From: Acholeplasma laidlawii PG-8A
GTDB taxonomy: Bacteria > Bacillota_I > Bacilli_A > Acholeplasmatales > Acholeplasmataceae
Length of the DNA stretch: 32,000 nucleotides
Direction of reading: 5' to 3'
Assembly: GCF_000018785.1 (NCBI RefSeq)
Contig: NC_010163.1
Location: 1,140,001-1,172,000 of the forward strand
Shown here: positions 5,794 to 32,000 of the stretch, piece by piece
Layout: each line of letters starts with the position of its first letter
Position numbering within the stretch: position 1 is the stretch's first letter
Translations under genes and position numbers: made by a program
The notes under the pieces: generated by a model
Seen by the model: only the letters and a program-made list of their open reading frames with translations
Told to the model about the DNA's origin: nothing
Database searches by the model: none

Positions 5794-5797
5794 TTTT

Positions 5798-6925: not shown

Positions 6926-6971
6926 ATTTTTGCTCCTTTGATTTATTTATACATAGTTTATGACTATCACC

Positions 6972-6977: not shown

Positions 6978-6999
6978 AAGAAATCAAAGTTATAAATAA

Positions 7000-7027: not shown

Positions 7028-7051
7028 GTAATAAAGAAAGTTGGTAAATAT

Positions 7052-7747
7052 ATGGAAGAGAAAAAATTACATCCACACAACTGCATTGATAGACTTGAAC
7101 TATTCAACACACTTACAAGTGAACAACGTCAACTAGTGTTTAAATTGATTGAACACCGACATTATAGTGCCGGACAAATGATTTATAGTCCAGGTGAAAG
7201 TGCTGGTTCTATCCATATTATTAGTAGAGGAAAGGTTCGAATCTATCGACTCTCTGAAAGCGGTCGTGAACAACTTATAAGACTTTTACTCCCAGGTGAA
7301 TTTACTGGAGAGCTTGCACTATTTAAAGAAGGCATCTATGAAGCTTATGCTGAAAGTCTAGAAGATACAAAGATATGTATGATCCACCATGACGACTTTA
7401 AAAACTTACTTAAATCCTACCCTGCCATATCAGTTAAGATGTTATCTGTTTTAGCAAAGCGCTTAAGTATCTCTGAACAACAATCAACCTGGATGTCTAC
7501 AGAAACATCCAAAGAAAGACTAATTAACTTTCTTATCCGAAGTGCAACACTCAATAAGCAAGGTGAGATGGTAGTCTATCTACCTATGCCTAAAAAAGAT
7601 CTTGCATCTTATTTAGGCACAACTCCCGAAACCTTATCGCGCCAATTTACAATATTAAAAAAAGACGGTGTCATTACACAGTCATCTAAAAATTATGTAA
7701 AGATTCATGGTTTAAGCCATAATGATATTACATGTGAGATTTGTTAA
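7052..7747 (+). CDS. Crp/Fnr family transcriptional regulator
   Basis: 231 aa. N-terminal cNMP-binding-like beta-roll (GESAGSIHIISRGKVRIYRLSESGREQ..GEFTGELALF) and a C-terminal HTH, KKDLASYLGTTPETLSRQFTILKKDGVI, carrying the FNR-type E--SR recognition motif. Confidence 0.85.
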   Translation: MEEKKLHPHNCIDRLELFNTLTSEQRQLVFKLIEHRHYSAGQMIYSPGESAGSIHIISRGKVRIYRLSESGREQLIRLLLPGEFTGELALFKEGIYEAYAESLEDTKICMIHHDDFKNLLKSYPAISVKMLSVLAKRLSISEQQSTWMSTETSKERLINFLIRSATLNKQGEMVVYLPMPKKDLASYLGTTPETLSRQFTILKKDGVITQSSKNYVKIHGLSHNDITCEIC

Positions 7748-11404: not shown

Positions 11405-11437
11405 AAATATAAGCGTATCTAGTAAATTAGATACGCT
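11401..11437 (-). terminator. Intrinsic terminator closing the giant-protein/McrB-like operon
   Basis: Perfect 10 bp stem agcgtatcta (11412-11421) / tagatacgct (11428-11437), 6 nt loop. On the minus strand it is followed by TATATTTTTGA. It begins 5 nt after the stop at 11443. It is the only terminator I can find downstream of position 32000 on this strand. Confidence 0.65.
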
Positions 11438-11442
11438 CATTT

Positions 11443-14775: not shown

Positions 14776-16034
14776 TATCTTCTACCTCTTTTCTGTTTAT
14801 CCGCTTTAAATTGAAGTCTTTCTTTCGTGATGTGTGAAACATTTAAAAGAGATCCATCTTGAATTGATTTTTCTGTTTTGTATAAGACTTCTATATGATT
14901 TACTTTTGCAAAATATAATAATTCTGCAATCATATCATGTTCCATGACTTTATCATCAATTTCTAATCTCTTAATGTGATAACGTTGTAGTGCTAGATAT
15001 AATCCTTGATGAATCTCATCGACATGCATCGACATTTTAACACCTAAGTTACTAAGGGTTAATATATTTTTTATGAGTTCATCTTCATAAGTCACATTAC
15101 TTAATCGAATCGATAATATGACATTTTCTAGTAAGAACTGATTCGCCTTAACGATTGTTTGTAGATACTCTATGAAGGTTTCTTGTTCTAGTGTTGATAA
15201 TAACACTGGAATATTAATGTTTGCATAGATATTTTCATGATATAACTTGTTTAATATCATTTCTACTAACATCATATTGACCCAACTCATATCACTAACT
15301 GGTAGTTTATTTAAGAATACATCCAGTTTAGAACCATTAATCAGTAGTTCATTGAATACTTCATTTGTCTTTTTAATCTTTAAGGTTTCAACTTGATAGG
15401 TTTTTAATTCCAGTTCTACTTGTTTTAATTTATTGATTAAGTCTGCATAGGTTTCATAATCTTCTTTAACCATATCATCATGTGATGTGACTGCGCCTAA
15501 ATGTTTAATTGATGAAATAAGTGTACTAGAAAGTGCCTTTAAGTCAAAACTGTCGATTGTTGCAACACTTGCAGTTTTTGTAATATGGATGCCATTTTCA
15601 TGATAGGTCTTTTGGGCAAGCAGTTTAAATTGCTTGCCTAAAAGTTCTTTATCTTCATCCATAGAAGGGTAATACACAATAAATGTATCCCTTTGGTTGG
15701 TTTGTGCTAATTTACCACCAAATGGTAAATATACACTCAACTCTTTTGCGATATGTGTTAGGTAATTTCTAACTGTGTGATCGCTATATGTATGTTCAAC
15801 TAATGATAGATTGTTGATTTTTACTAAATATAAATAAAATGTGTGATTCTTTTTTTCTTGATATGCCAAATACTCTAAAAAGAGTTTATATTTTATGACT
15901 AGATTAAGGGTCAACATCTTATGTTTTTTCATCTTTTTAAGACTCTTTAAGTAATAATGAATACTTAAGTAGACTAAGACTAAAACAATAATGATTGCAC
16001 CTAAACTAATCAAACTTTTTTGTAGTTCATTCAT
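14775..16034 (-). CDS. Single-pass membrane protein with degenerate GGDEF-like and EAL-like domains
   Basis: 419 aa. TM helix at aa ~8-27 with almost no extracytoplasmic part. GGDEF-like block FYLYLVKINNLSLVEHTYSDHTVRNYLTHIAKEL...LAQTNQRDTFIVYYP (GGDEF replaced by QRDTF). EAL-like block YQVE...VFNELLI (EAL replaced by NEL), MSMHVDEIHQGLYLALQRYHIKRLEIDDKV (DDFGTG replaced by VDEIHQG, with an LKID-like LEID). Starts 13 nt after the giant gene stop. Confidence 0.5.
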   Translation of the reverse strand: MNELQKSLISLGAIIIVLVLVYLSIHYYLKSLKKMKKHKMLTLNLVIKYKLFLEYLAYQEKKNHTFYLYLVKINNLSLVEHTYSDHTVRNYLTHIAKELSVYLPFGGKLAQTNQRDTFIVYYPSMDEDKELLGKQFKLLAQKTYHENGIHITKTASVATIDSFDLKALSSTLISSIKHLGAVTSHDDMVKEDYETYADLINKLKQVELELKTYQVETLKIKKTNEVFNELLINGSKLDVFLNKLPVSDMSWVNMMLVEMILNKLYHENIYANINIPVLLSTLEQETFIEYLQTIVKANQFLLENVILSIRLSNVTYEDELIKNILTLSNLGVKMSMHVDEIHQGLYLALQRYHIKRLEIDDKVMEHDMIAELLYFAKVNHIEVLYKTEKSIQDGSLLNVSHITKERLQFKADKQKRGRR

Positions 16035-16047: not shown

Positions 16048-19000
16048 CTAGAATATGAGTTGATTTTTATCTTTCTTGTTGTTTTTTCTAATACGTTTAA
16101 GGATGTAAGTCATTGCTGCTATAACCCATAAAATGATACTTATAATCAGTAAAATTGTAAGTAGTAAACTTGGTTGTTGTACTCTTTCAATAATGACCAT
16201 ATAATGCTGTATAGAGCCATCTTCTGCTTGCACAGATATTTTAATAACTTGGCTTTCTTGGATATCGGTTAAGATGATTTCACCCATGTTATTGGTACTA
16301 AAATCGCTGCCATTAATCGATACTTTGGAACTGTTATTCGCAACCGCATTTAACTTAACTGATTGTGTACCGTTAGACAATGAATATTTATAAACGAACG
16401 GATCGTTTTCATCGGATGTTATGACTTCTTCGTTATTAATTTGTAATAGTGTGATTTCTTTTAAGTTACTTAAGGATGTATCTCTTCTTAATGTTAATAC
16501 ATAAGTTAACTCTTCTAAACCATCACCACTAGTTACTGTGATGTGAACCACAGTATCTTCAGAACCAATCTCTCTAATACCAAATCCTCTAATACTTGCA
16601 CCACCTTGATCTTTAGCAAACCCTTTGATATTTACATATCTTGTATGTTTACCAATGATGATGGTGTATTCTAGTGTATCATCTAATAATGGAATGGTAT
16701 TTTGAATATCGTGTTCTCCAATCATTTCATAGACTGTTAATTCACCTAATAATGCATTGGAGTTTACATAAGATATATGTAGTTTATAACTAGATACATC
16801 ACCACTTTGAGCTTTAACTTCAATGGTAATCGTTCTTGTTTGACCTTCTATTAATGTATAGACATCATTTCCTTTAACTGTACTATTGTCACTTTGAGCT
16901 ACCCCATAAATATCAAGGTATTTTTCAAATTGTAGTGGATGTACGATGGTATATTCGAAGATGTCCGGATTAAAGCCTCGAACCATTTCACCATTTATCT
17001 CTAGAGTTTCTAATAAACTATTGGTATCAGGCAGTTGTCTATTGACATAGATTGTATATACTTCTGATGTATTTGAACCATTGGTGGATTCAATTCTAAA
17101 TCTGTAAACTATTTGACTACCTACACCAAAACTTTGGAGTCTGTTATCTTCAATTTCTGTATTACTTGCATCTAAATAGATTACATTACCAATTGTTTGG
17201 ACAATCAGTCTTGTAGTATCTACATTAAATGGTACTAAGATATCTTCATAAACATAGATATTATTTTTAAACTCTAAACCAAAGTATGAAATACCATCAT
17301 CTCCAAGAATGGAAATATCTTTGACTTCTGCAAGACTTGCAAAATCTAAATCATGTAATACGTAAATGATATATTCACCAATACTACCATCTTCTGCAAC
17401 TACAGTTACAGTAATGATGGTATTGTAGTATCCTTCAACTTCACCATGTAGTTGGATGATGCCGGTGTTATAAAGTATTTGAGTTTCATGATTCTTTTCT
17501 GCTAATACATGGACTGTATTTAGTTTCATATCATCATTTAATGTAATATTATATGTACGGTTTTCTGGATTAAATATAGATTGGTCAAATGCTAGTATAT
17601 TACCGTTAACATCTTCTATTACTAATGTTTTTAGTGTAGTATCTGTATTTGGTAGTGCTCTTGTTATATTAAATTTATATTCTTTTTCAGCAACTGTACC
17701 ATCTTCTGCAGTCACTCGTAAGCGAATCACTTTAGTTAGTCCTGGTATCAGTGCGTATGCACCTTCACCAAATACCGTTGCAGCCTTACTTTCAGTATGC
17801 CCTTTAATATACATTTCATCATGTCCAAAAGGTAGTTGAATGTTATATTCATAGATAGTTGGGTCAAAATCGAATATAAGTTTGTTGATTGGAATTTCAA
17901 TTGTGACATCTAATAAATTGGTGTTATCACTTAATACCGGGTCTGTTGCTTTACGTTTATAGACGTTAATAGTGTATTCAATGCCTTTATCTCCATTTTC
18001 AGCTATAACATAGAACTTCACTGTGATTGTATTTCCAGAGGTTAGGTTAAAGTCTTTACGTGTATTAATTTCTTGTACACCGTTAATAAATACGAGTGCT
18101 TTGTTATGTGTCTCAACACGTAAACGTGCAATCGTTGTCGATGCAGGAAACTCTAAGTCATAAGTTGTGATTTCAGGATCAAAGTTTAGACGATTAATAT
18201 TGGTACTTGCATCAAAGAAACGCACGTCAATGATTTGGTTATCACTACTATAGGTTTGTTCAATAGTAAGGGTAATAGTCTTGGTTGTTTTACCACTTTC
18301 GGATGTAAAGACAATTCTAATCGTGTTTTGTCCAAAACTTAAATTGACGTCATGATCTTGTACTAAATTACCTTCAGTATCATAGATAACATAAGTACCA
18401 AAATTACTTATCATTGGTATCACTTTGATGGTTTTTTGGTCATTTGTAACACTATCCATCACGTAATCTAATACGCCTTCTTCATAAATATCTGTTTGAC
18501 CTACAAGTAATTGATCAATTAAAATCTCATCATTTACTTTTTCCACTTCAATTAAGTAGGTTCTAGCAGGTTTGTTAAGATCTTCTGGTTGCACACTAAT
18601 TTCAAATCGGTTGATACCGTGTTTAATATTTAACGGTATTCGTAAATCACCTGTTACTGTTTGTTTAGTTGATGCATTTGTAACATCTATCATGATGTGT
18701 TCTACAGTTTCATTGACTACAAATTTATATGTATTTGTTAAAGCATCAAACACTATTTGTGGGTTCACTGATGCATCACCTAATAGGTAGAGGTTATCTT
18801 GTGTTTTAACTAGGATGTTATCTAGAGTGTCTAAATCATCTAGTAATTGTTTAACTAAGACAGTATATGTTTTTGTTGTTGAACCATCTTCAGATGTGAC
18901 ATCTATTTTGATGGTATTTTCACCAGGTAAGATATCTAAAATAAAGTGTTCTGATAAGTTTCCATTAATTTTAACTGTTCCATATAGATCAGTTAGTACT

Positions 19001-22000
19001 GCTTCAATGTCTAGTGTTTTCTTATCAGATGAAACATCTTCTAATCTAATTATAGATTCACCAGGTAGAAGTCTATCAACACCATCAATAAATAGGTTTT
19101 GTAGATTGATTTCTGAATTAATAATGGTGATTTCAACTCGAATAATGAATGCTTCAATTGCTAAATCTTCAGGTTGAACTTCAATTTCAAATACATTTAG
19201 TCCATGTGTTAATGGTTGAGCAACATTAAATGGTGTACCACTTAATGTTTGTCCATAGTTTGCTATATAACTAAATGTAACGTTTGTATGATATTCATTT
19301 AAGCTAAATTGATATAGGTTATTTTCCGGATCAAAGTTAGCTGTTGTAAGTAGATCTTCTAGATTTGTTTTTATACCTAGATTTGCTAATTTATCTTCTG
19401 TGTTAAATAATCTAGTGACATAGACTGTATATAGTGGACTTACATCACCATTTTCTGCTTCCACATAGAATGTAATTTCTTTTGTTTCACCAGAAACTAA
19501 TGTATATACACCTTCACCAAAACTAGTAGCTTTAGCATTTTTTACAATAGCTAGAGTAACTTCTGTTGTTAGGTAATCTACATTTATGTTGTATGTTTCG
19601 ATGTCTTTATCAAAGTTTAATAATTGTGCACCTGATGTACCAGTAAGTGTTGCTGTAAACTCATTGTCACTAGATGCTAGTCTTGTGATGATGACTTCAT
19701 ATACTTGAACCACTTCGTTATATGCATTCAATACTTCAACTGATACTTTATTCTCACCCATTTCTAGATTTAGTGGTGAAGTAATTACTTTACCAACTTT
19801 ATCTTTTAAGATGATGGAACCATCATTAAATAAGCTTTCAGATAGGATGTTTGCTTGTTCCTCTTCTGTTGTGTAATGTATTTCATTACTTGATGTATCT
19901 TGTACATCACCATTAATGGTTAAATGTTTTAAATCATTTTCTTTGTTTAATACATTAATCGTAATGGTATAGATAAATGGTTGTGTGTTGATACTATCTT
20001 CAGCTAGAACTGTGACTACAAATACGTTTGCACCTTTATTAAGTGTTAAAGTACTTGGGTTTGTTTTATCTACTGTTTGGTAAGTATCTGATTTTACATA
20101 TCTAATAATTAAGTTTCTGTATTTAATGTCTAAATACTCTAAACCTAAATTAATGACATAGTTATTAGTTGTCTTATCGAATACAATATCTGGATTTTTG
20201 CCGGATATACCAATTAAGTAGTTTGTTGGGTCCAGTGTATCGATAATACTTATTTCTTCTAAGTGGTTGTTTGTAGAAAGTGCTCTTCTTGTTACACCGA
20301 TGGTATAAATTTCAGATTCAGAACCATCTTCAGCTGTGACTTTAAATGTAATTGTGATTGTTTCATCTAAGTTGATTATGTATTTACCTAAGCCGGTTGC
20401 TGTTGCCTTGGCTGGAATTATTGCACCTAATGTGACATGTTCTACATTTTGAGGTACTTCTACAGTATATGTAAGGGTGAGTGGATCAAATGTGATATAG
20501 TTTGTTCCATTACTTCCGATTAAACTTACATTCGATAGTGTCTTCTCACTTGATTTTAAACGTGTGATTTCTAAGGTATGTGTCTTAACGATTTCTCCAT
20601 ACTCATTTTTGATTTCAATTGTGAAGACATTTTCATCAAAGTTTAGATTTGGCGTATTGGTTACTACATTCCCTAGACTATCTTTAATCACGAAGCTACC
20701 ATGTGCCTGGTGTGTTAAAACAGGTGTAATGGTTACACTTTCTTTTTCCGTATCAAAATAGTTTACATCTTGAACTGTTAATGCTTTTCCATCTACAGTC
20801 AGAGATTGTAGGCTATTTGATTTATATAAGACTTCTATGATGATGGTGTACTTACCTTGAGTTACTGTTTCATCTTCGGCCTTAATGAAGATTTCAAAGC
20901 GGTTCGTGCCATGGTTAAGGGTCAGTGGTGCGTTAATTGGACCAGTAATTGTTTGAGCGATATGACCTTTAACGATGTTAATGATGATTTCTTCATTAAT
21001 ATAGGTTTCATCTAGTTTTATGTTATATGTTTTAGTCGTTGGGTTAAATGTTATTCCCTTTGGACTTAAGGTATCTAAACCTAGTAAGTATAATCCTGAG
21101 TTTAATGGATCTGTTACTGTAAGATTGTTTAGATTAATCTCTTTAGAAGCTGCCTGTCTATGAATTGTAATTGTATAAGGATCAGATACTGTACCATCTT
21201 CTGCAGTAATCGAGAATTCAAAAGTATTTTCACCTACAACTAAACTGATATTATTTAATTTATTTGGTGTCACTTGTGCCTTATTATGTGTTGGTGTAAT
21301 TTCAATATTTAAACTCTTTTGACTATAAGGTAAATTAAGTACAACTGAGTTATTAGCAAGTAGTTCATCAAATGGGAATGTCACTACTTGGTTATCTTGA
21401 TTTTTAATAGATACATTACTTAATGAATTATCACTGCTTAGTACAATATTTTTAACAAAACGTATTTGATAGGTCTTAGTACTATTATCTTCAGCACTTA
21501 CCTTGAATGTGATGGTTTGGTCTAAGCCACCTTCACCATTGTAAGTAAGTACTATATTAGATAAATTAAATGTAGATTCTAGTACTTGTTTATCAGTGTT
21601 TTTAAGTTCAATGTCAACTTTAACATTTGAAATGGAACTTGTATCAGGTAGTTCTACTAAATAATTCGTACCATCTGCTTTATAAGTAATATTTTGACTA
21701 TTAGAAATGTTAGTGATAGATAGTGATGATATATCAGTATCTTTATACGGTTCGTTTCTGTAGACGTTTAATCTATATGTATTGCCTGATTTAGTACCAT
21801 ATTCACTTTCACCATATATTTCAATAATGTTATTTCCATACTGAAGTGGTATGGAAGTAGCGTTTTTAACGCCGTTTACATAGTAGTTAGCAAACGTATC
21901 ATTTAAGACAACATGAATTGGCAGACTTGATACTGTATATAAAACATTGTCTAATGTATATTCAAATTCACTATCTATAAATCCGATGTCGTTTGAATTA

Positions 22001-25000
22001 CCTTTAATGTTATTGATTTCATGATCATCATTCTTACTTACGATATAAACTGTATATTCTTTAGAATGTGTACCGCTTTGAGAGGTTACTGTAATCGTAT
22101 AGCTGTTAGTGATACCAGGTTTAATTTCTTTAATACCTAAACCTGTTACAGTGGAAAACTCTTTACCAACTGCACTTATTTGAACACTCATGTGTGTTCT
22201 ATCTACTCTTAAGTATTCACCTTCATAACGAATGATTGAACTATCAAATACACCATCTAGTAAGTTGATGCCACCTACAATGATTTCTAGTGAATCTAAT
22301 TCAGCTAGTGTACTTGCAGCTTTTCTTGTATATGTAAAGTTATAGTTTTGAGATTTAGCTTCTGCAGCATATTCTGTAGAAAGTAAATCGGATTGAATTC
22401 TTAGTGTAATTATTTGGTTGGTTCCAACTACAAGCGTATGTGTGTAGGTAATTAAACCATCTTCATCCGCAAATAGTGTTGTACCACCATTAAAGGATAT
22501 TCTTGCAAATCTATCCTTTGGTGTCACAATAAATGTTAGTTGATTTGTTTGGAAATCAAACTCACCTAAATTAGGCACACTTAAAATATCACCTGTATAA
22601 ATTACAGTTGAGCCATTTTTAATTACAATATTATCAATACCTATTTCAACGTTTTTACGCCAAATAGTAACTTTGTAGGTATTTGATGTACCATCTTCTG
22701 CTTTTACAATAATATCGATGACATTAGATGGTTGTGCTGCAGGGTCATTTAAATTATATGTATATGTATACCTATGATTTAACCCTGATGTATCAGTTAG
22801 ACTAAATGGTGTTTGTACACTTGAGCGATCACTTGATAAAACAGTAGCTACAAACGTTACAGTATTCACTTGTCTATCTACTCTTAAAGTATAAGTGTTG
22901 GTAGTTGGATCAAAGTCTAATAAGATATTGTTTCCATTTACCATTACTTCTAGATCATCTAGATTTTTATGAGATTGGGCTACTTGTCTATTCACACGAA
23001 TCTTTAGATATTCTCCAAAGTTTCCTGCTTGAGATTTGACTCTAAATTGACCTTCAATCACACCTGTTTTTGAAAATAACCAAATACCTGTTTGATTATC
23101 ACCAATAAAGTTTGATGTAATCATTGATTTAGAACCATCTACCATGTTAAATGTAATGTTTAACCTATCGACATTATATGCAATATTTCCAATGTCTAGG
23201 ACACCTGATATAAACTCTTGTGCTGTAAATGTTTGTGTAACAAAGCCTGTTCCACTTACAGTAACTGATTCAAAGGTTTTTACATCATTAGCTCTTTTGA
23301 TGCTGATTGTGTAAGTTTTAAGTACGCCACCTTCTGAATATACTTGTATAGTCAAGTTTGAGGTTGCTCCACTTAAAACATTAAATTGTTGGTCTATTAA
23401 ACTTGTAGTACCTTTAGTTCCAATGTATGCATAGTTTTGTTCATTAACTTCGGCTGAATAAATAAGTGGCCATAGTTCATCACGATCATCAATTGTAACT
23501 GTGTAGTTAGTTTTACTACTCAAGAAACTTAAATCAATAATTTCACCATTGTTCGTTTTTAAAACAAAGGATTCTAAACTATTGTCTGTTTTTGCTTGAG
23601 CTCTCACGATATTAATGACATACTCACTGCCTTTGGTTCCTGCTTCACTTTCGACCCAAACTTTAAAGGTTGTTGTGCCATTTCCAATTGCTTTAACATA
23701 GGTGTCATTGATGCGCACCTGTCCATCAATGTATACTTTGGAATCTACATTTTGAGGTGATGCTGTAATTGTGACATTACTATTAAATGAATAGTTGATG
23801 TTAATGGTATTGTTAAGTTTTGCTGGATCAAAAACAAAATCAGTACCTTCAATATTTAAAGACTTTAACGTTGTATCATTTGTTGCAACAACAAATGGAA
23901 TAATAATTGTATTTTTTTCACCATTTTGTGCAGTGACTATAATCGTCACATTTTGTTCAATTCCTCGAACAAATGGAATATTTGTACTGTATCTTCCTGT
24001 TTCATTTTTAGTAAATGTTGTTGAACCAACTTTTATTGTTGCTTTAGATGTAGTAGGTAACAACACTTCAAAATTAAGCGTGTTAATACCACCAACAGGT
24101 TCAACAATTACTTTATTATAAGTGACATTAGAGTCACCAATTTGGAACTGAGAAAAAGGTAATCCACCAATATTGATTGCGCTTATATCATTGTTAGAAT
24201 CAGCAGCAGTACGTGTAATTTGAATTGTATAGTTTTTAACTACAGCACCATTTTCTGATGTTACTTCTAAACTTGTAGTTTTAATGACTTCATACATACC
24301 ACTAAAGTCTAAAGGCGTAATCAATTGGTTTGTTGTTGTACCTTTAATAATTGATTTGGTTGATGTTTTAGTTTCCAGTTTTAAGTTACTTGGAAATAGA
24401 CCATAGTCAAAACTGTATGTATATTTATTTTCAGATGATATGAATGTAAAATCATCTAGGTTTGCAATGACAGTACCATCATCGGTTCTAAATATAATCG
24501 ATTCTAATTCTGCTTGATCAGATTTTTTTTCTATTTTAATTGTGTATTCTTTTTCAGTACCATCTTGAGCTTTAATCGTAAGGATAAAATTGTTGGTTCC
24601 GTAATTTAGGCTAGCCACACTAATTTGATGTATGAGTTGTGCACTTTGGTATGTACCTTCACCAATTTTAGCCTCTCTTTTGCTACCTGGATCAATAGTT
24701 AAAGTAACAAACTCACTACTATTGTTACTTACTGTGTAAACTAAGTTTGTAATATTTAGATTTATAGCAGTAAGGCCTGATTCTTGAACCTTAATATCAC
24801 CCGTTTTAATTGATGTGTCATTAGATGGTTCAATAACAAAGTTTACAATATATGTAACTACTTCATCAGGGAATTGACTTTCTGGTGTAACCACTACTTC
24901 ATAAGAGTATGTTTCACCAGTTTCTAGTGAACTCTTAGAGATGATACCCGTTGTATAGTCTTTATAAGTTGTAGTACCTACTTCTTTATATTTAATGGTT

Positions 25001-26310
25001 TGACCTGTTTGGTTCTTAGCTATTTGAAAGCTTAAGGATGTTTTAGTGTGTGGATAATTAATTGTAAATACATTACCCACAGGTGCAAGACCTTGAGGAT
25101 ATTCATTGGTTATAATTTTTATATTAGCGTCTGATGACCCTTTTTCACGTTTCACATATACAGGATAATTAGTTGTTGTTGAGCCGTTTTCAGCTGTAAC
25201 ATTGAAATCACCAATATGCGTAAATACATCTTGCTCGATGTTAGTTACTCTAATTTCATTTTTATCCAGTGTTGCAAAAGGATATGCTGTTGTAGCTAGT
25301 ATCTTTATATCATTTTCTGTGAAGGGTGTTACAATCTCATAGCGATTGTCTACACTGTTAAAAGTAATTGTTCCTAAATCACCTTGTGCTAGTTTAAGTT
25401 CGATTCCAGTATTTGTTGATTCACTACTGACAGTTAACTTGATTTCATAGATCTTTGTTGCATCCCCATCAGTAGTAGTAATTGTAATCGTATCACCTGT
25501 CTGATAATTAGTGGATGCTTTACTTTCAGTCTTGACATAGTTAGAACTACCTAAACTTGTTTTGGTAAAGACAGGATTGATGGTTAAACCACCAATACTG
25601 TCTTGATAATCTATTGTAATATTTTGCGTGATCTTGCCTTCTACTTCTGTAGCAGAAACATTGAATGGATATACTTTACTTGTTGTAGTTCCAGTAATGT
25701 TTAGTGCAGAGAGTGTTGCATCAGGGGTTGAGTTAGGATCTCCTATGATGATACTTGCCAACGAGATATCAGTTCCAGTGTATTCAATAGTTCCACTATC
25801 CCAACTTGCAGCTTCCATTATCATCTCAATTTCTAAATTCTCCGCCGGATCATTTTTGTTATATTTGATTAGTACAGTCGCAAGTTTTACTGGAGTAGTT
25901 GTAATAGATGCATCTGCTCCACCGCTAGTTGCTAGTATAACAGAATTATTTAGAGTACCACTATCAAACCAATTTTCAGGTCTACCTCCAGCAAATGGTA
26001 CATATGTACCTAGTGTTTCAACATAAGATATACCTTGTAGTTTACTGTTTGATGAAAAATCAAACTGAATGTTTGTTAATCTTTCTGTACTTCCTGTGAG
26101 TGACACAGCATATATATCTGCCCTAACAACATCACCATCATAAGGATCTTCAAAGTATTGTTGATCTAGATAAGCCTTTGTAAAGTTCTTTTGCCCACCT
26201 ATTTCAAAATAAATTTCCATTTTCGCTGATACTGCACTTGTTGATTGAATGTTCATTATGATTGTAGCTAAGAAAATAAACATCAGTGCAATTATTCTTT
26301 TATATTTCAT
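16048..26310 (-). CDS. Giant (about 3420 aa) cell-surface protein: signal peptide, cohesin-like domain, about 32 cadherin-like beta-sandwich modules, C-terminal TM anchor
   Basis: A 10.3 kb ORF uninterrupted in AT-rich DNA. Signal peptide KYKRIIALMFIFLATIIMNIQSTSAVSA. Repeating module signature L..L.V.G..L..F.P....Y.V.V......V.I.A....A.V...G...L..G.N.I.I.VTAEDG...YTI.V.R. C-terminal LLLTILLIISIILWVIAAMTYIL followed by KRIRKNNKKDKNQLIF. The ORF-track start at 26319 is a GTG. The ATG at 26310 is preceded by AGGTGA with 5 nt spacing. Confidence 0.9.
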   Translation of the reverse strand: MKYKRIIALMFIFLATIIMNIQSTSAVSAKMEIYFEIGGQKNFTKAYLDQQYFEDPYDGDVVRADIYAVSLTGSTERLTNIQFDFSSNSKLQGISYVETLGTYVPFAGGRPENWFDSGTLNNSVILATSGGADASITTTPVKLATVLIKYNKNDPAENLEIEMIMEAASWDSGTIEYTGTDISLASIIIGDPNSTPDATLSALNITGTTTSKVYPFNVSATEVEGKITQNITIDYQDSIGGLTINPVFTKTSLGSSNYVKTESKASTNYQTGDTITITTTDGDATKIYEIKLTVSSESTNTGIELKLAQGDLGTITFNSVDNRYEIVTPFTENDIKILATTAYPFATLDKNEIRVTNIEQDVFTHIGDFNVTAENGSTTTNYPVYVKREKGSSDANIKIITNEYPQGLAPVGNVFTINYPHTKTSLSFQIAKNQTGQTIKYKEVGTTTYKDYTTGIISKSSLETGETYSYEVVVTPESQFPDEVVTYIVNFVIEPSNDTSIKTGDIKVQESGLTAINLNITNLVYTVSNNSSEFVTLTIDPGSKREAKIGEGTYQSAQLIHQISVASLNYGTNNFILTIKAQDGTEKEYTIKIEKKSDQAELESIIFRTDDGTVIANLDDFTFISSENKYTYSFDYGLFPSNLKLETKTSTKSIIKGTTTNQLITPLDFSGMYEVIKTTSLEVTSENGAVVKNYTIQITRTAADSNNDISAINIGGLPFSQFQIGDSNVTYNKVIVEPVGGINTLNFEVLLPTTSKATIKVGSTTFTKNETGRYSTNIPFVRGIEQNVTIIVTAQNGEKNTIIIPFVVATNDTTLKSLNIEGTDFVFDPAKLNNTININYSFNSNVTITASPQNVDSKVYIDGQVRINDTYVKAIGNGTTTFKVWVESEAGTKGSEYVINIVRAQAKTDNSLESFVLKTNNGEIIDLSFLSSKTNYTVTIDDRDELWPLIYSAEVNEQNYAYIGTKGTTSLIDQQFNVLSGATSNLTIQVYSEGGVLKTYTISIKRANDVKTFESVTVSGTGFVTQTFTAQEFISGVLDIGNIAYNVDRLNITFNMVDGSKSMITSNFIGDNQTGIWLFSKTGVIEGQFRVKSQAGNFGEYLKIRVNRQVAQSHKNLDDLEVMVNGNNILLDFDPTTNTYTLRVDRQVNTVTFVATVLSSDRSSVQTPFSLTDTSGLNHRYTYTYNLNDPAAQPSNVIDIIVKAEDGTSNTYKVTIWRKNVEIGIDNIVIKNGSTVIYTGDILSVPNLGEFDFQTNQLTFIVTPKDRFARISFNGGTTLFADEDGLITYTHTLVVGTNQIITLRIQSDLLSTEYAAEAKSQNYNFTYTRKAASTLAELDSLEIIVGGINLLDGVFDSSIIRYEGEYLRVDRTHMSVQISAVGKEFSTVTGLGIKEIKPGITNSYTITVTSQSGTHSKEYTVYIVSKNDDHEINNIKGNSNDIGFIDSEFEYTLDNVLYTVSSLPIHVVLNDTFANYYVNGVKNATSIPLQYGNNIIEIYGESEYGTKSGNTYRLNVYRNEPYKDTDISSLSITNISNSQNITYKADGTNYLVELPDTSSISNVKVDIELKNTDKQVLESTFNLSNIVLTYNGEGGLDQTITFKVSAEDNSTKTYQIRFVKNIVLSSDNSLSNVSIKNQDNQVVTFPFDELLANNSVVLNLPYSQKSLNIEITPTHNKAQVTPNKLNNISLVVGENTFEFSITAEDGTVSDPYTITIHRQAASKEINLNNLTVTDPLNSGLYLLGLDTLSPKGITFNPTTKTYNIKLDETYINEEIIINIVKGHIAQTITGPINAPLTLNHGTNRFEIFIKAEDETVTQGKYTIIIEVLYKSNSLQSLTVDGKALTVQDVNYFDTEKESVTITPVLTHQAHGSFVIKDSLGNVVTNTPNLNFDENVFTIEIKNEYGEIVKTHTLEITRLKSSEKTLSNVSLIGSNGTNYITFDPLTLTYTVEVPQNVEHVTLGAIIPAKATATGLGKYIINLDETITITFKVTAEDGSESEIYTIGVTRRALSTNNHLEEISIIDTLDPTNYLIGISGKNPDIVFDKTTNNYVINLGLEYLDIKYRNLIIRYVKSDTYQTVDKTNPSTLTLNKGANVFVVTVLAEDSINTQPFIYTITINVLNKENDLKHLTINGDVQDTSSNEIHYTTEEEQANILSESLFNDGSIILKDKVGKVITSPLNLEMGENKVSVEVLNAYNEVVQVYEVIITRLASSDNEFTATLTGTSGAQLLNFDKDIETYNINVDYLTTEVTLAIVKNAKATSFGEGVYTLVSGETKEITFYVEAENGDVSPLYTVYVTRLFNTEDKLANLGIKTNLEDLLTTANFDPENNLYQFSLNEYHTNVTFSYIANYGQTLSGTPFNVAQPLTHGLNVFEIEVQPEDLAIEAFIIRVEITIINSEINLQNLFIDGVDRLLPGESIIRLEDVSSDKKTLDIEAVLTDLYGTVKINGNLSEHFILDILPGENTIKIDVTSEDGSTTKTYTVLVKQLLDDLDTLDNILVKTQDNLYLLGDASVNPQIVFDALTNTYKFVVNETVEHIMIDVTNASTKQTVTGDLRIPLNIKHGINRFEISVQPEDLNKPARTYLIEVEKVNDEILIDQLLVGQTDIYEEGVLDYVMDSVTNDQKTIKVIPMISNFGTYVIYDTEGNLVQDHDVNLSFGQNTIRIVFTSESGKTTKTITLTIEQTYSSDNQIIDVRFFDASTNINRLNFDPEITTYDLEFPASTTIARLRVETHNKALVFINGVQEINTRKDFNLTSGNTITVKFYVIAENGDKGIEYTINVYKRKATDPVLSDNTNLLDVTIEIPINKLIFDFDPTIYEYNIQLPFGHDEMYIKGHTESKAATVFGEGAYALIPGLTKVIRLRVTAEDGTVAEKEYKFNITRALPNTDTTLKTLVIEDVNGNILAFDQSIFNPENRTYNITLNDDMKLNTVHVLAEKNHETQILYNTGIIQLHGEVEGYYNTIITVTVVAEDGSIGEYIIYVLHDLDFASLAEVKDISILGDDGISYFGLEFKNNIYVYEDILVPFNVDTTRLIVQTIGNVIYLDASNTEIEDNRLQSFGVGSQIVYRFRIESTNGSNTSEVYTIYVNRQLPDTNSLLETLEINGEMVRGFNPDIFEYTIVHPLQFEKYLDIYGVAQSDNSTVKGNDVYTLIEGQTRTITIEVKAQSGDVSSYKLHISYVNSNALLGELTVYEMIGEHDIQNTIPLLDDTLEYTIIIGKHTRYVNIKGFAKDQGGASIRGFGIREIGSEDTVVHITVTSGDGLEELTYVLTLRRDTSLSNLKEITLLQINNEEVITSDENDPFVYKYSLSNGTQSVKLNAVANNSSKVSINGSDFSTNNMGEIILTDIQESQVIKISVQAEDGSIQHYMVIIERVQQPSLLLTILLIISIILWVIAAMTYILKRIRKNNKKDKNQLIF
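16174..25734 (-). repeat. About 32 tandem, diverged coding repeats of about 100 aa (cadherin-like beta-sandwich modules)
   Basis: I counted 32 module ends of the type YTI.V.R / Y.V.I.K in the translation. 3187 aa divided by 32 gives about 100 aa per module. The repeats are diverged at DNA level; only the TAEDGT-coding cores recur. Confidence 0.8.
25735..26223 (-). other. Cohesin-like domain at the mature N-terminus of the giant protein
   Basis: The 163 aa after the signal peptide run GDVVRADIYAVSLTGSTERLTNIQFDFSSNSKLQGISYVETLG ... SVILATSGGADASITTTPVKLATVLIKY. This parallels the cohesin pattern GD.V.vpv......gi....f.l.yD...l......G ... dG.latv.fkv (compared from memory with C. thermocellum CipA cohesins). 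Confidence 0.5.
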
Positions 26311-26311
26311 A

Positions 26312-29300
26312 TTATTCACCTAAATTCATCGTGGTTGTTTGATTTTTGTCCCAAAAAGGGGTTTTCGAATTTAAATGGTTAATTAATGCGGTTTGATCTA
26401 ATACATTAATCTTCCCATCGCCTGTAGTGTCTGCGGCTAGTAGATTGGATAATAAGATTGGTTGTTTACGATTCAAGTGGTTAATTAGTGTGGTTTGATC
26501 CATAACATTCACTCTTCCATCGCCGTTAATATCACCTTTAAGTACAACATGTACTCTATCCGTAATATTTCCATTACTATCTTTAATAACTATCATACGT
26601 CCACTAGCAACTATATCTTGATCTGTTAATTCTTTACCATTTTTATCTAAGAAGTAAAGTTCTTTATTAACGAAGTTTTCCTTCAGGTTTGCCCAAGTTT
26701 GATTTTGGAATACACCCATCAAGTAAATTGGATTGGTTTCGTCATAATAATTTCTTTCTTCAATTGGTATAACACTTGTTACTTCTGCATGGAACATACC
26801 AAGCATACTTTCTGGTTTAAGTTTAATATAACTGTCGTATTCATAAACGGCAGTTAATTTAATACTACCTATAACTGTATTTGGTTTTATTTCTTCAATA
26901 TAGGTTCCAAGATCTTCATTTGCTAAAATATTTGCTTGACGTCTTGCCATTTGGCGCATGTCTTGTGATGTTTCATCTTGTTCTACCATGTACCAACCAA
27001 CAAACTTATAACCATTTTTGTTTGCTTGATTAAATCTGATGTAGTCTTCAATGGTATACATTGTTGGGTTGATTGCAAGCCCACCATTTAAGTCGTAGCT
27101 TATACCATAACTTATTGGTTGCCAGTATGCTGTTAAAACTAAACTACCAACATTATTATATGTAAATGAATCGCCATCACCATATGATGGTAAGACATTA
27201 CCATCAACAATCCAGCCCATAAAGTCATAACCTTTTCTTACATAACCAAGATCCGTTAGTACAACATTATCATCAAAGTTTACCGTCATTGGTGTCATTG
27301 AACCTTCCACAATGACTTCATCACCTTCGTTATAACCATCATTAAAGATAATGTTATATCTTCCTGCAACAAAGACCGCATGAACTGTCATATCACCTGT
27401 GACTCTATCAATGTGTTTATCCCAGTTTGTAAATCTGTAACCTGGTTTTTCAGGATCTGAAGGAATAATAGGACGTCCATTATAAGGGACAATAACTTCT
27501 TCATGTACTTCTTCACCGGACATATAAGTAACAACATATAGTCTTATCTCTTGATTAAATGCTGCTTCAAGTTGGATATCTTGTGTGACCGATTCTTCAA
27601 AGATATTAAATACGGTAGTACTTCCTTTAATCACCCAATGACTAAACACGAATGTGTATTGCATTGTTGGCAATTTACTTGGTATTTCAGTTGGTGGTAT
27701 TAATGTTTGTCCATGTAAAACAGTCAGTGTTTTAAATAAAGCACCATTACCATCAAACAGAGTCACTTTATATTCTTTATACACTTCTTTATAACGTGCA
27801 ACAAAGATCATATGCTCTGTTAGAATTTCAGGAACTACCTTATCCCAACCATCAAATGCATAATCAAAACCTTCACCACCTGGTTTGTTGACTACATTTG
27901 GTTCTATAATTGGGTCCCCATAGGCACCTACAATTTGTTTTAGGATGGTTGTTTGATCATCATCATAGAATGTATAAATAAACTTCCTTGGTGTACCTAA
28001 GTACTGAGTTTGTACAATTAAGTCCTCTGTAATAAAACTAAATGTCTTATCCCAACCAGAGAATACATAAACTGTACTTGTTGTTGATGATTTTACTGGT
28101 ATGTCATCAGTATTTGGTTCTACAGCACCTTCACCGTATTTGACCATTTGTTTTTCAATGACATGACCAAATTCATCAATAAATGTGACTTCATATTCTT
28201 GTAAATGATTGTAAAAAATTGCTTTAATTGTAATATCTTCATACACTTTAACTGTTAAAGTTTCCCACATTCTAAAAGTGTAATAATATTGTTTGTTTGG
28301 ATCTTTTGTTGGTGTATTTAAAGGCATTTTAGGAGTAGCACCATAATAAACTTCTTGCTCATCAAATACATTTCCGTTACCATCTAAGAAGGTTACTATG
28401 TAAACTCTTAAGTGTTCTTCATAATATGGATAATAATTCTCATCTGATGTAACAACTTCATTAAATACTGGATTCCAACTTATAAATTCATAGCTAAATT
28501 GTCTATCTGCTGGTTTTATTGGACCACTTGGTGCCATAATCACTTGACCATAGGTTGCAGTGATGGTGCTAATAATTGTTGTAGTATCATAATCATAAAA
28601 TGTTAATGTATAAATACGTTCGATCTTTTCATAATATAGTTCTGTTACAATATCTTCTGTAACATTATCAAATTTGACACTCCAACGTATCATGTAGTGA
28701 TAATAGTTATCACTTTCTAATATTGGTACATCTGGTGCTTTAGCACTACTGCCTTTATTTACTAATTCTTCTTTAATGATAATACCTTTATCGTTTTTAA
28801 AGATAACTAAGTACTGTCTTGTAACCATATCAAATATTGGTCTAACAATTAAATCACTTGTAACAACATCATAGTTTACATCCCATGATTTAAAGACGTA
28901 AGATACATCATCTGTTGGTGTTTTAGAAGGTATACCATTTGGTGTTATAGCACTTTGTCCATAACTAATTGTTTGTTCATCGAAGACATTTCCATTGCCA
29001 TCTAAGAATGTGACTTGATAGGTTGTTTTTACATAATTATAGGTTGGATAGATTTCTAAGTTCTCTGTAACATAATTAGATGGTTCGGACCATCCTGTAA
29101 ACAGAAAGAAGAAATCAGGATTTGGACTTACCTTAATTGGAGTAGTTGGCTCAAATGCCTTAGAACCATATTCGATGATTTGCGTATCACCAATTTGGTT
29201 ATTTAATGCATCATAGAATCTAACTTCATAGTATCTATTTACCTCACTATATAGTGCATAAATAGTTCTATTTTCTCTAACATTTATTAGATCTTGATCC

Positions 29301-32000
29301 CATCCACTAATAACTAGTACTTGATCATTTTCCAAGTATGAAATAATCGGATTAAATCCTTCCATAAACCTTGGATCTTTTGCATCTTGTCCATATTCAA
29401 TGATTTGTGTGTTGATAATGTTATCGTCTTTATCAAAGAAATTGACAGTATAGTATCTTGGTACTTCAATAAACTTAGCTTCAATATCTAAATTCTTTGT
29501 AACACCTGAATAGCTTGTTTTCCAACCATCAAAGATGTAGAAGATGTTTTGTGTTGGTGTTTTAGTAGCAACACTAGGTGCTATAGCATCCAGTCCGTAT
29601 TTCACGTAATCAGTTTTTATTAATCTGTTATCACCATCAAAAAAGTTTACGGTAAATGTGATTTCTTTTTCTTCGTATTCAGGATAAATGTCTAGATTAG
29701 ATTTCACATTAGAAAAATCTTCACTCCAACCAATAAATTCATATGCATATGGACCATCAATAATTTTTGAAGGTGCATTTGGTTCAGTTGCTGCCTCATT
29801 ATATTTCACTATTTGTGAGGAGATGATTTTGTTAAATGCATCATAGAAGTTAACGGTAAAGGAATCATTGACTGTATCATAAATTGCATAAACATTTAAG
29901 TTTTCTTCAACATTTGTAAAGTCCTTATCCCATCGATTAAAGATGAGTAGTGTACCATTTTGTTGGTCAATTATATCTACAGCAGGCGCTAGAGCATTTG
30001 ATCCTGGTGCTACCTCTTGTAGTTTAATTAAATTATTAAATTTATCATAGAATCTAACTTCATAATAAAGATATGTTTCATCAAATAATGCTTTAATGGT
30101 GCGATTTTCTTTAACTGCTAAGCCGTTATTATCCCAACCGACAAATGTATATTTAATTTGATTTGTACTAGTTTTATAACCTACTGGGAATGTGACATTT
30201 TGACCCCAACCAACTTGTATTTTGGTTGTTTCATCACCATTAATAAGTGTGACTTCATAACTAATTAAACGTGATCCCTTATTTAAGTTAATTGTCTTTT
30301 CTGCTGTAATAAAGTCTAGTGTGCTACTCCAAGATATAAAGTAATATTCATAGCCTGTAGCTTGATTTGGATGATCCTTTAGGTAAGTTGTTAAATCTGG
30401 TGCTACTGCATCTTTTCCATATAATACATATTGTGTATTTAAGATGGTTGCACCATCTGTAAAGGTAATTAAGTATTGTCCAGCTACTTCTTGGTAGTTT
30501 GCATATACTAAAGTATCTGAGGTAATATTTTTATAATTTGCACCCCAAGAGATAAACTTATAACCAATTTCTTTTGTACCTTCTTTAAATGGTATACCTT
30601 CTGGTAATATAGCTGTTTTACCATACTCGGTTTCTACAGTCTTATAAACTGTATCTTGATCAATCATAAATGTTACTTGGTAAGTTCTTGGACTTGATTT
30701 AAACACAGGATATATTTCTAGATTTCCCGTAATAACAGTAAAATCTTGATCCCAACCATCAAATGTATAAATTTCAGATACACTTGATGGTTTGGTTGGA
30801 TTATTTATTGGTTGAACTGCACTATTTAAATATTCAACAACTTGTACTTTATCAATGATTTTGCCAAAGGCATCGTAAAACGATACTTCATAATATCTAT
30901 CTACTCTAATGAATTTAGGTCTTACATTTAAGTTTTCTGTAATATAAGCATAATCTTCTATCCAACCATCAAACTTATAGGCATCATTGCCTGCTGGTGC
31001 TTGAGTTGGCACCTCACTTGGATGTGCAGCCATATCACCATATAGTACTTGTTGACTAGATAAAATACTACCATCACCATTAAAGAAGTTTACTGTATAA
31101 CTTCTTCTAACTTCTTTGAACTGTGCAATTACATCCATACTTGTTGTAATACTTGAAATATCTTTATCCCAACCACTAAATTCATATTTGAATTCAGGTG
31201 TTTGAGCCTTAATAGGTAATACACTTGGTGGTTCTACACTAAATAAATACTCACCCATTTTTGTTTCTATATGCATACCATCAAAGTTATAGAATTTAAT
31301 TTCATAATATCTTTGAACTGGTGTAAAGATTGGATGAATATCCATTGACTCAGTAATTACTACATTAAAGTTATAATCCCAACCTTCAAAGTGATACGCA
31401 TAAGTATCATAAGTTTTTGTAGGTATTTTACTTGTAGGTTGAATATATTGATTATATTCACCTTTTTGACGCTCAAACAAATGACCATCACCGTCATAAT
31501 AATTAATTGTATAGTATCTATCCATTTGATGATACTCTGCACGTATTTGAGTTGGTTTTAAAATTTGAGTACCATTAAAATCAAATATCCAGCGCATATA
31601 TTCATAAACATATAATGCATTTTTATTCTTTAATGGAATTAACCCGTCTGGTTGTTGAACATATTGTCCATGTCTAATTTCTTCTTCATGAATTACTTTA
31701 TTGTTGCCATCTATAAACTGTACTAAGTGATATGCTTCTTCCCATTTAGCATAGACTTCAATGTCTTTTTCTTCGTTAAATACTTGGATACTTTGACCCG
31801 ATTTATTAGTAAGTTGAATCTCTATACCATCTTGATCATAATACCAACCTAAGAAGTTATATCCAAAGTATGTTGGTACATATAATTGATAGTGTTCATT
31901 GTCTAATACATATTGTAGATTTTCATTTGTTGTTTCATTAAGTTCTTCAAATGTTACTGTGTATAGTCTATTGTATGTACTTTCTTTAGATAGTGCTTGA
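26312..32000 (-). CDS. Giant (>1895 aa, N-terminus outside the window) secreted repeat protein: at least 24 Listeria-Bacteroides-type repeats plus a C-terminal dockerin
   Basis: The ORF track starts it at M 31597, but I translated the same frame from 31598 to 32000 and found no stop. That stretch continues the repeat pattern (YTVTFEELNE...GYNFLGWYYDQDG...EVYAKWEEAYHLVQFIDGNNKV...). Repeat signature: Y.V.F.d..g.....q.v.yG..a..P...P.k......Y.F.GWd.....vt.dl.i...f. Confidence 0.9.
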   Translation of the reverse strand, partial: QALSKESTYNRLYTVTFEELNETTNENLQYVLDNEHYQLYVPTYFGYNFLGWYYDQDGIEIQLTNKSGQSIQVFNEEKDIEVYAKWEEAYHLVQFIDGNNKVIHEEEIRHGQYVQQPDGLIPLKNKNALYVYEYMRWIFDFNGTQILKPTQIRAEYHQMDRYYTINYYDGDGHLFERQKGEYNQYIQPTSKIPTKTYDTYAYHFEGWDYNFNVVITESMDIHPIFTPVQRYYEIKFYNFDGMHIETKMGEYLFSVEPPSVLPIKAQTPEFKYEFSGWDKDISSITTSMDVIAQFKEVRRSYTVNFFNGDGSILSSQQVLYGDMAAHPSEVPTQAPAGNDAYKFDGWIEDYAYITENLNVRPKFIRVDRYYEVSFYDAFGKIIDKVQVVEYLNSAVQPINNPTKPSSVSEIYTFDGWDQDFTVITGNLEIYPVFKSSPRTYQVTFMIDQDTVYKTVETEYGKTAILPEGIPFKEGTKEIGYKFISWGANYKNITSDTLVYANYQEVAGQYLITFTDGATILNTQYVLYGKDAVAPDLTTYLKDHPNQATGYEYYFISWSSTLDFITAEKTINLNKGSRLISYEVTLINGDETTKIQVGWGQNVTFPVGYKTSTNQIKYTFVGWDNNGLAVKENRTIKALFDETYLYYEVRFYDKFNNLIKLQEVAPGSNALAPAVDIIDQQNGTLLIFNRWDKDFTNVEENLNVYAIYDTVNDSFTVNFYDAFNKIISSQIVKYNEAATEPNAPSKIIDGPYAYEFIGWSEDFSNVKSNLDIYPEYEEKEITFTVNFFDGDNRLIKTDYVKYGLDAIAPSVATKTPTQNIFYIFDGWKTSYSGVTKNLDIEAKFIEVPRYYTVNFFDKDDNIINTQIIEYGQDAKDPRFMEGFNPIISYLENDQVLVISGWDQDLINVRENRTIYALYSEVNRYYEVRFYDALNNQIGDTQIIEYGSKAFEPTTPIKVSPNPDFFFLFTGWSEPSNYVTENLEIYPTYNYVKTTYQVTFLDGNGNVFDEQTISYGQSAITPNGIPSKTPTDDVSYVFKSWDVNYDVVTSDLIVRPIFDMVTRQYLVIFKNDKGIIIKEELVNKGSSAKAPDVPILESDNYYHYMIRWSVKFDNVTEDIVTELYYEKIERIYTLTFYDYDTTTIISTITATYGQVIMAPSGPIKPADRQFSYEFISWNPVFNEVVTSDENYYPYYEEHLRVYIVTFLDGNGNVFDEQEVYYGATPKMPLNTPTKDPNKQYYYTFRMWETLTVKVYEDITIKAIFYNHLQEYEVTFIDEFGHVIEKQMVKYGEGAVEPNTDDIPVKSSTTSTVYVFSGWDKTFSFITEDLIVQTQYLGTPRKFIYTFYDDDQTTILKQIVGAYGDPIIEPNVVNKPGGEGFDYAFDGWDKVVPEILTEHMIFVARYKEVYKEYKVTLFDGNGALFKTLTVLHGQTLIPPTEIPSKLPTMQYTFVFSHWVIKGSTTVFNIFEESVTQDIQLEAAFNQEIRLYVVTYMSGEEVHEEVIVPYNGRPIIPSDPEKPGYRFTNWDKHIDRVTGDMTVHAVFVAGRYNIIFNDGYNEGDEVIVEGSMTPMTVNFDDNVVLTDLGYVRKGYDFMGWIVDGNVLPSYGDGDSFTYNNVGSLVLTAYWQPISYGISYDLNGGLAINPTMYTIEDYIRFNQANKNGYKFVGWYMVEQDETSQDMRQMARRQANILANEDLGTYIEEIKPNTVIGSIKLTAVYEYDSYIKLKPESMLGMFHAEVTSVIPIEERNYYDETNPIYLMGVFQNQTWANLKENFVNKELYFLDKNGKELTDQDIVASGRMIVIKDSNGNITDRVHVVLKGDINGDGRVNVMDQTTLINHLNRKQPILLSNLLAADTTGDGKINVLDQTALINHLNSKTPFWDKNQTTTMNLGE
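26363..26536 (-). other. Type I-like dockerin domain (two Ca-binding EF-hand-like repeats)
   Basis: GDINGDGRVNVMDQTTLINHLNRKQPILLSNLLAADTTGDGKINVLDQTALINHLNSK contains two DxNxDGxxNxxD-type loops (DINGDGRVNVMD and DTTGDGKINVLD), each followed by a helix. It lies 16 aa from the C-terminus. Confidence 0.85.
26840..32000 (-). repeat. At least 24 tandem diverged coding repeats of about 68-75 aa (Listeria-Bacteroides repeat / Flg_new-like)
   Basis: I counted 24 units, each ending in an aromatic-x-F/I-x-G/S/R-W motif (YHFEGWD, YEFSGWD, YKFDGWI, YTFDGWD ... YDFMGWI, YKFVGWY). The period is about 210 nt. Confidence 0.8.

Follow-up and report, generated by a model that had tools for sequence, protein, structure and literature searches.

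A conserved pair of adjacent giant genes of Acholeplasma laidlawii that may build a two-protein, non-cellulosomal cohesin–dockerin surface fiber

In Clostridium thermocellum, OlpA, OlpC, and SdbA are cellulosomal anchoring scaffoldins with a single cohesin, and so is ScaE of Ruminococcus flavefaciens, to which the X-dockerins of CttA and ScaB bind. Non-cellulosomal pairs occur in the toxin/glycosidase complexes of Clostridium perfringens (cohesin-like PDB 2jh2) and among modules of Archaeoglobus fulgidus; such pairs are said to have been surveyed by Peer and colleagues in 2009. Here, we analyze two adjacent giant genes in a stretch of 32,000 nucleotides (nt) of the genome of Acholeplasma laidlawii PG-8A, a wall-less Mollicute (contig NC_010163.1, positions 1,140,001 to 1,172,000; below, the window). 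The upstream gene encodes protein B, which ends in a dockerin, and the downstream gene encodes protein A, in which a discrete domain of about 165 residues follows the signal peptide. We lean toward the view that both belong to a conserved operon with which A. laidlawii and a few related lineages build a two-protein, non-cellulosomal cohesin–dockerin surface fiber.

The open reading frames of the window place both giant genes on the minus strand. The window is identical to LS483439.1, a 1.50-Mb A. laidlawii genome (0 mismatches in 25,690 nt), and protein A is an exact match to ABX81728.1 / WP_012243059.1 of A. laidlawii PG-8A, labeled in the databases "Large hypothetical surface-anchored protein" or "cadherin-like beta sandwich domain-containing protein." Together, A and B amount to 9653 residues, encoded in about 29 kb or about 2% of the 1.5-Mb genome, and cysteine is absent from both. 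A repeat scan found no DNA-level tandem repeats in the giant genes; the modules are thus old and diverged and not an assembly artifact. The features of the two genes are as follows.

26312..32000, minus strand: C-terminal 1895 residues of protein B, the frame uninterrupted over 1895 codons up to the window edge (ACL_1119, a locus tag assigned by adjacency)
26927..31969, minus strand: array of 24 or more Listeria-Bacteroides (Flg_new) repeats, recurring about every 68 residues, from Pfam PF09479, TIGR02543, and a self-built profile
26534..26830, minus strand: conserved module of about 99 residues that adjoins the dockerin on its N-terminal side, where an X-module would lie (52-78% identity between lineages)
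26369..26539, minus strand: dockerin, residues 1821-1877 of visible B (PF00404; matches solved dockerins)
26498-26533 and 26396-26431, minus strand: calcium loops of the dockerin, DINGDGRVNVMD and DTTGDGKINVLD
26308..26321, minus strand: gene junction AGGTGA-ATAAT-ATG, read directly from the sequence
16048..26310, minus strand: protein A, a membrane-anchored stalk of 3420 residues (open reading frame; ACL_1118, likewise assigned by adjacency)
26224..26310, minus strand: signal peptide of A, about 29 residues, by inspection and hydropathy scan
25729..26223, minus strand: N-terminal domain of A, about 165 residues, a predicted cohesin-like beta jelly-roll (AlphaFold and Foldseek)
16213..25728, minus strand: about 32 divergent beta-sandwich modules of the cadherin-like type that make up the stalk (PF12733 and self-profile)
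16099-16170, minus strand: C-terminal transmembrane helix, residues 3381-3404 (hydropathy scan)
16051-16098, minus strand: basic, predicted cytoplasmic tail KRIRKNNKKDKNQLIF, directly after the transmembrane helix

The dockerin of B matches Pfam Dockerin_1 PF00404 with E=1.4e-12 and 48 bits (cut-off 22.9). Each segment of a dockerin consists of a calcium loop, in which positions 1, 3, 5, 9, and 12 are D/N, and a helix after it; judged by its sequence, B has both segments, DINGDGRVNVMDQTTLINHLNR and DTTGDGKINVLDQTALINHLNS, each of about 22 residues. The two halves are nearly symmetrical. The dockerin with two loops announced in the preliminary description is thus present, with the nuance that the second loop DTTGDGKINVLD has a T instead of N at position 3. 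The module preceding the dockerin contains PIEER, YD..P.YL.GV, and DRVH.VL.GD motifs that are invariant across lineages; outside of the adjoining dockerin, it has no match in Pfam or the PDB.

In the gene call of LS483439.1, full-length B contains 6233 residues, encoded in 18.7 kb. B had been described as a repeat protein of more than 1900 residues; the repeats are there, but the protein is far longer and its off-window part carries another motif. PF09479 matches B with E=7.5e-31 (106.5 bits vs. a cut-off of 27), TIGR02543 matches with 32.2 bits (cut-off 20.95), and an iterated self-profile delineates 24 units within the window. The 1450 residues just past the window contain a GLUG motif (PF07581, 27 bits vs. 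a cut-off of 20.5) and are free of enzyme domains. That segment (L006:1-4350, B residues ~2901-4350) shows GGISG/GGITG-type repeats and no Listeria-Bacteroides repeats, which suggests that the off-window middle of B may consist of beta-helix-like modules. Precomputed Pfam assignments for the whole 6233 residues give Flg_new and Dockerin_1 only. The first ~2900 residues lie outside the sequence examined, and the secretion of B is presumed only.

Protein A starts with a signal peptide (MKYKR, a hydrophobic core, and a predicted cleavage between AVSA and K); if translation instead started at the GTG three codons before the ATG, the protein would have 3423 residues. PF12733 (Cadherin-like) matches the protein in 14 stretches with E=1.3e-123. 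The iterated self-profile delineates 27-28 stalk units and five gaps of 115-145 residues fit one more unit each, hence about 32 modules. Apart from the signal sequence at the N-terminus, residues 3381-3404 are the sole hydrophobic segment in the hydropathy scan. Pfam, self-profile, and hydropathy therefore agree with the earlier outline of a signal peptide, about 32 modules, and a C-terminal membrane anchor. No SLH domain or LPXTG motif is found in A, and the anchor is the single C-terminal membrane helix with its basic tail, in place of an SLH or sortase signal, as expected in a host that has no wall. Orthologues of A have the same arrangement of helix and tail and terminate in LIF or VIF. 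In three lineages with about 25-28% overall identity (the window, P0005, and P0006), the tails end in LIF, VIF, and LIF, respectively, a hint that the cytoplasmic end of the stalk protein carries a conserved recognition motif.

At the junction, the Shine–Dalgarno-like AGGTGA (26316-26321) lies inside the end of B and is followed by the TAA of B (26312-26314), a single T (26311), and the ATG of A (26308-26310). The preliminary description had the two genes translationally coupled, with A starting right after the stop of B (GGTGAATAATATG); this is borne out, with one base between TAA and ATG.

Compared with the anchoring scaffoldins, the locus has in common a cell-bound protein with one proposed cohesin for the C-terminal dockerin of a partner and, as in X-dockerin pairs, the dockerin of B is directly preceded by a conserved module. 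On the other hand, A is anchored by a membrane helix in a wall-less Mollicute, and its cohesin-like module is separated from the anchor by about 3200 residues (about 32 modules). Further, the cargo B is a non-enzymatic repeat protein without carbohydrate-active enzymes (CAZymes) or carbohydrate-binding modules (CBMs), and the cohesin-like module of A, unlike scaffoldin cohesins, is invisible to PF00963. In A and the last 3333 residues of B, Pfam and NCBIfam detect no CAZyme and no CBM, the only domains being Flg_new, Glug, Dockerin_1, and Cadherin-like. With neither dockerin-bearing CAZymes nor a CBM-bearing scaffoldin, the locus is not a cellulosome, in line with what had been concluded from the lack of visible glycoside hydrolases and CBMs. 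As in the non-cellulosomal pairs, the modules are proposed to serve an assembly unrelated to cellulose. However, the pairs of C. perfringens and A. fulgidus involve enzymes or small proteins and are detectable by sequence, whereas A and B would be two giants joined end to end.

The domain at the tip of A was examined by structure prediction and by sequence comparisons. The AlphaFold model is all-beta (predicted local distance difference test, pLDDT, 72.9; predicted template-modeling score, pTM, 0.72), and the predicted fold is a nine-stranded beta jelly-roll that can be superposed on solved cohesins. In a Foldseek search of the PDB, ranks 1-17 are all cohesins (E from 6e-4, probability 1.00), including OlpA (3ul4), OlpC (4dh2), and R. 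flavefaciens modules (5n5p and 5lxv). The target-normalized template-modeling (TM) scores over these 17 cohesins are 0.28-0.60, with values <0.3 only against multi-module chains of about 300 residues; the best TM with any cohesin is 0.64, at rank 20, and a match of the CBM3/adhesin type occurs at rank 44. The orthologous domain of P0006 (30% identical) was modeled independently (pLDDT 70.6); its top match is the cohesin CaCohA2 (E ~1e-3, TM 0.35-0.64), and 2jh2 is also among its structural matches.

Several observations weigh against this assignment, and with it against the fiber. Pfam Cohesin PF00963 does not match full-length A at E<=0.1 and, at E<=10, matches neither the isolated domain nor any of seven members of its family; residues 33-195 of A, which the preliminary description expected to score as PF00963, thus fail to do so even at that threshold. 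A profile of the domain family matches no PDB chain at E<=10. With hhalign, comparison to a narrow profile of seven CipA-type cohesins gives Prob 0.1 and E 0.54, a weak test because the search for cohesins returned only 10 close CipA-like sequences; the non-significant alignment is collinear, with LTNIQFDFSSNSKLQGIS of the domain over IANCDFVFRYDPNVLEII of the cohesin. Among the matches of the P0006 model, the cohesins are intermixed with CBM3 modules, TTHA1873, and an adhesin domain of CLIPPER. Both models derive from a seven-sequence alignment, are of medium confidence, and contain one disordered segment each; the Foldseek E-values reach only ~1e-3, and the query-normalized TM is <=0.52. As to the junction, short intergenic gaps are frequent in this compact genome.

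In addition, phmmer searches of the PDB with the domain return chance matches or none. The domain is rare, with six relatives among 1.84 billion representative proteins in an exhaustive HMMER search, all six located at the start of comparable giant proteins or of pieces of them. A word-index search for homologues gave one fragment for the domain and four matches for the X-dockerin, and two scans of Joint Genome Institute (JGI) metagenomes, one with X-dockerin motifs and one with motifs of the domain, gave no relatives. The safest wording is that the tip of A is predicted to be a jelly-roll of the cohesin/CBM3 class, closest to cohesins; we give its identity as a cohesin moderate confidence. 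The cohesin-like domain of the preliminary description is therefore retained as a predicted jelly-roll, while neither Pfam, PDB profile, nor hhalign matches accompany it, and "cohesin-like" is our interpretation because no sequence method shows a cohesin. In a Pfam survey, an Acholeplasma single-cell genome has a dockerin and no PF00963 cohesin (PMC10266427), which fits with a cohesin that Pfam does not detect.

The same gene pair is present in other lineages, with the following arrangements.

L001: upstream gene of >3300 residues ending in X-module and dockerin; gap of 16 nt; cadherin-like giant with the same N-terminal domain
L002: upstream gene of >2150 residues ending in X-module and dockerin; gap of 1 nt; cadherin-like giant with the same N-terminal domain
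L008: X-module and dockerin end; gap of 1 nt; signal peptide and N-terminal domain
L005: X-module and dockerin end; gap of 9 nt; signal peptide and a still more divergent N-terminal domain

In every locus examined, the window included, there is exactly one N-terminal domain and one dockerin. Pfam confirms the dockerin in the B orthologues of L001 and L002 (51.3 and 37.5 bits). The orthologues in these two loci are 46-47% identical to the window for B and 25-28% for A, and the N-terminal domains share only 26-33% identity among lineages. Between the window and L008/P0003, the closest pair, the dockerin is 44% identical vs. 78% for the X-module, and the N-terminal domain is 30-33% identical vs. 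60% for the next stalk module. Within each dockerin, helix positions 9-11 and 17-22 are alike between the two halves and, between lineages, they are different. Such internal symmetry together with change between lineages is typical of dual-mode, specificity-bearing dockerins. With only four or five lineages, these patterns of divergence and symmetry are suggestive and not statistical. Both calcium loops and the symmetrical helices are kept in the dockerins of four of the five lineages. In L005 (L005:70-984), the second calcium loop of the dockerin is degenerate (LVTDDDVINAED); the N-terminal domain has no match to that of the window (BLAST E 0.57), with the arrangement of the junction kept. 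A further locus, L004 (ENA ERZ1645045 ctg2599), was left out, as its noisy assembly has the look of a long-read artifact, chimeric or palindromic. It comes from a relative with 92-94% identity, in which the genes are split into small open reading frames and the dockerin junction lies in an inverted duplicate.

From these arrangements, we infer how A and B could bind, how they would be placed, and what they may do. Protein A would be exported via Sec, with removal of the signal peptide, and held as a type I membrane protein by its C-terminal helix, beyond which the basic tail would reach into the cytoplasm. The ~32 modules would form a stalk, very roughly of at least 100 nm by inference, carrying at its far end the N-terminal domain as a putative, highly diverged jelly-roll of the cohesin type. 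The calcium-loaded dockerin of B, a protein presumed to be secreted, would dock at the tip of A, lengthening the fiber. Since its two halves are near-identical, the dockerin could bind in either of two orientations. Translational coupling and the one-to-one occurrence of the modules favor equal amounts of A and B and, since B is three times the size visible in the window, the part of the fiber farthest from the cell would be the N-terminal half of B. Rather than degrading polysaccharides, the fiber would most likely serve in adhesion or as a long-range coat of the surface. Of the membrane-anchored stalk whose tip captures the dockerin, as first proposed, the architecture, the dockerin, the coupling, and the conserved pairing stand, while the identity of the cohesin comes from predicted structure only.

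Other explanations of the same data have to be weighed. The tip may instead be a ligand-binding adhesin or a CBM of the CBM3/cohesin-like class that recognizes a host or plant surface, A and B being separate adhesins that share an operon, with the dockerin of B having another partner or none. In fibrillar adhesins, a binding domain at the tip is the rule, and exposed ligand-binding tips evolve quickly, as does the N-terminal domain relative to the adjoining stalk module; further, CBM3 and the tip domain of the CLIPPER adhesin are among the structural matches (mostly for the orthologue model), and the cohesin call is absent from every sequence method. However, cohesins rank above CBM3 in both structure searches, and exclusively so in the top 17 for the window domain, Pfam CBM_3 is also without a match on the domain, and there would be no explanation for why one dockerin and one copy of a rare domain lie side by side in five lineages. 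On these grounds, we regard separate adhesins as unlikely, though worth keeping in mind.

The other two possibilities concern the dockerin of B. Cellulosomal dockerins often pair with cohesins from distant loci, and the dockerin of B might bind a cohesin in another protein of A. laidlawii or in another organism, the N-terminal domain of A being unrelated. With the adjacency of B and A conserved across lineages, no further N-terminal domain or dockerin-like loop in any locus examined, and a Pfam dockerin but no PF00963 cohesin in the Acholeplasma single-cell genome (PMC10266427), such a distant partner appears quite improbable. Alternatively, the dockerin could be an orphan calcium-binding cap that stabilizes the end of B, a role that has been suggested for numerous non-cellulosomal dockerins, with the gene order reflecting mere co-expression. 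According to Peer and colleagues in 2009, many dockerins reportedly lack identifiable cohesins. Dockerins of this kind are widespread (PMC10266427), and the degenerate second loop in L005 suggests a relaxed constraint. Yet, both calcium loops and the symmetrical helices persist in the four other lineages, and the dockerin helices diverge faster than the X-module, a pattern expected of a specificity surface and not of a structural cap; we give little credit to this possibility as well. The cohesin–dockerin fiber is the reading retained in what follows.

The locus can also be compared with giant fibrillar adhesins. As in the RTX adhesin LapA and the stalk adhesins of Gram-positive bacteria, a long stalk of immunoglobulin-like repeats projects a terminal domain; those adhesins are single polypeptides that bind an external ligand, whereas the proposed ligand of the tip of A is another giant protein. 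The genes downstream of A invite a comparison of their own and are the following.

14775..16034, minus strand: single-pass membrane protein of 419 residues with degenerate GGDEF and EAL domains (ACL_1117 by adjacency)
13282..14775, minus strand: protein of 497 residues in which membrane helices at the N-terminus precede a McrB-like AAA+ NTPase (ACL_1116 by adjacency)
11443-13272, minus strand: lysine-rich protein of 609 residues, ACL_1115 (open reading frame)
11409-11440, minus strand: terminator-like hairpin after the 609-residue gene (terminator scan)
10194-11333, minus strand: predicted lipoprotein of 379 residues with an LLTAC lipobox-like motif and a C-terminal Peptidase_C39_2 domain (E=6.6e-25; domain search)

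In the 419-residue protein, the matches to GGDEF (E 0.032) and EAL (E 0.0035) are sub-threshold, and GGKLA is found in place of GGDEF. Its orthologues directly follow A in L001 and L002 (35-41% identity). It is possible, from such features, that the protein is a cyclic di-GMP receptor beside a giant adhesin. Together with the nearby cysteine-peptidase-like lipoprotein, this degenerate GGDEF-EAL neighbor loosely recalls the control of LapA by LapD and LapG; unlike LapD, the 419-residue protein has no extracellular sensor domain. The 497-residue protein matches the PADLOC candidate defense family PDC-M26A (E=4e-43) and McrB in the PDB (6hz4, E=0.003), and its gene is syntenic in L001 and L002, with orthologues 57-68% identical. 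A chance adjacency to an McrBC defense island was considered and found to be an incomplete explanation, as the two downstream genes are syntenic with the giants in both of these loci. The 609-residue protein has no family match.

The terminator scan found no terminator-like site between A and the next three genes, and the hairpin at 11409-11440 probably ends the operon. The gene for the 379-residue lipoprotein lies just downstream of the operon, behind the hairpin, with a promoter-like site of its own; the product could be a surface cysteine peptidase that acts on the fiber. One may imagine that the five genes form one machine, in which a cytoplasmic, cyclic di-GMP-sensing and NTP-driven module would act on the tail of the stalk so that the fiber is displayed, shed, or remodeled; this is a speculative proposal that we hold to be improbable. 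Farther away in the window (4016-7747), the genes are metabolic (electron-transfer flavoprotein-like genes, an acyl-CoA dehydrogenase, and a divergently transcribed regulator of the Crp/Fnr type) without apparent link to the fiber genes.

Locus tags were assigned from published primers for ACL_1115 (PMC3139596, Table S13), which map inside the 609-residue gene; by adjacency, ACL_1116 is then the 497-residue protein, ACL_1117 the 419-residue protein, ACL_1118 protein A, and ACL_1119 protein B. In published proteomics (PMC3139596, Table S8), ACL_1117 is represented by 2 peptides (5.73% coverage), ACL_1118 by 14 peptides (7% coverage), and ACL_1119 by 3 peptides (1.24% coverage), and these coverages are consistent with sizes of 419, 3420, and 6233 residues. 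ACL_1115 is transcribed and its protein undetected (PMC3139596, Table S6). With the tags so assigned, both giant proteins are probably expressed.

Searches of the full-text literature revealed no account of a cohesin–dockerin pair in Acholeplasma or Mollicutes, the sole related item being a passing mention of a dockerin (PMC10266427). The giant pair, although apparently expressed, has only hypothetical or cadherin-like annotations. A. laidlawii can be cultured and, according to a passage of PMC10805103, now has genetic tools, so that the model is directly testable. If the five genes did form one machine, a wall-less bacterium would have a surface organelle under regulation, for which no counterpart has been described. 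If the tip of A is a working cohesin, cohesin–dockerin assembly reaches into the Mollicutes and to giant structural proteins joined end to end; the plug and socket of the cellulosome would then act outside the cell-walled, fiber-degrading bacteria. Functional cohesins would also exist beyond the reach of PF00963, which would help to explain many "orphan" dockerins. For A. laidlawii itself, a common contaminant of cell cultures, the fiber may bear on surface attachment.

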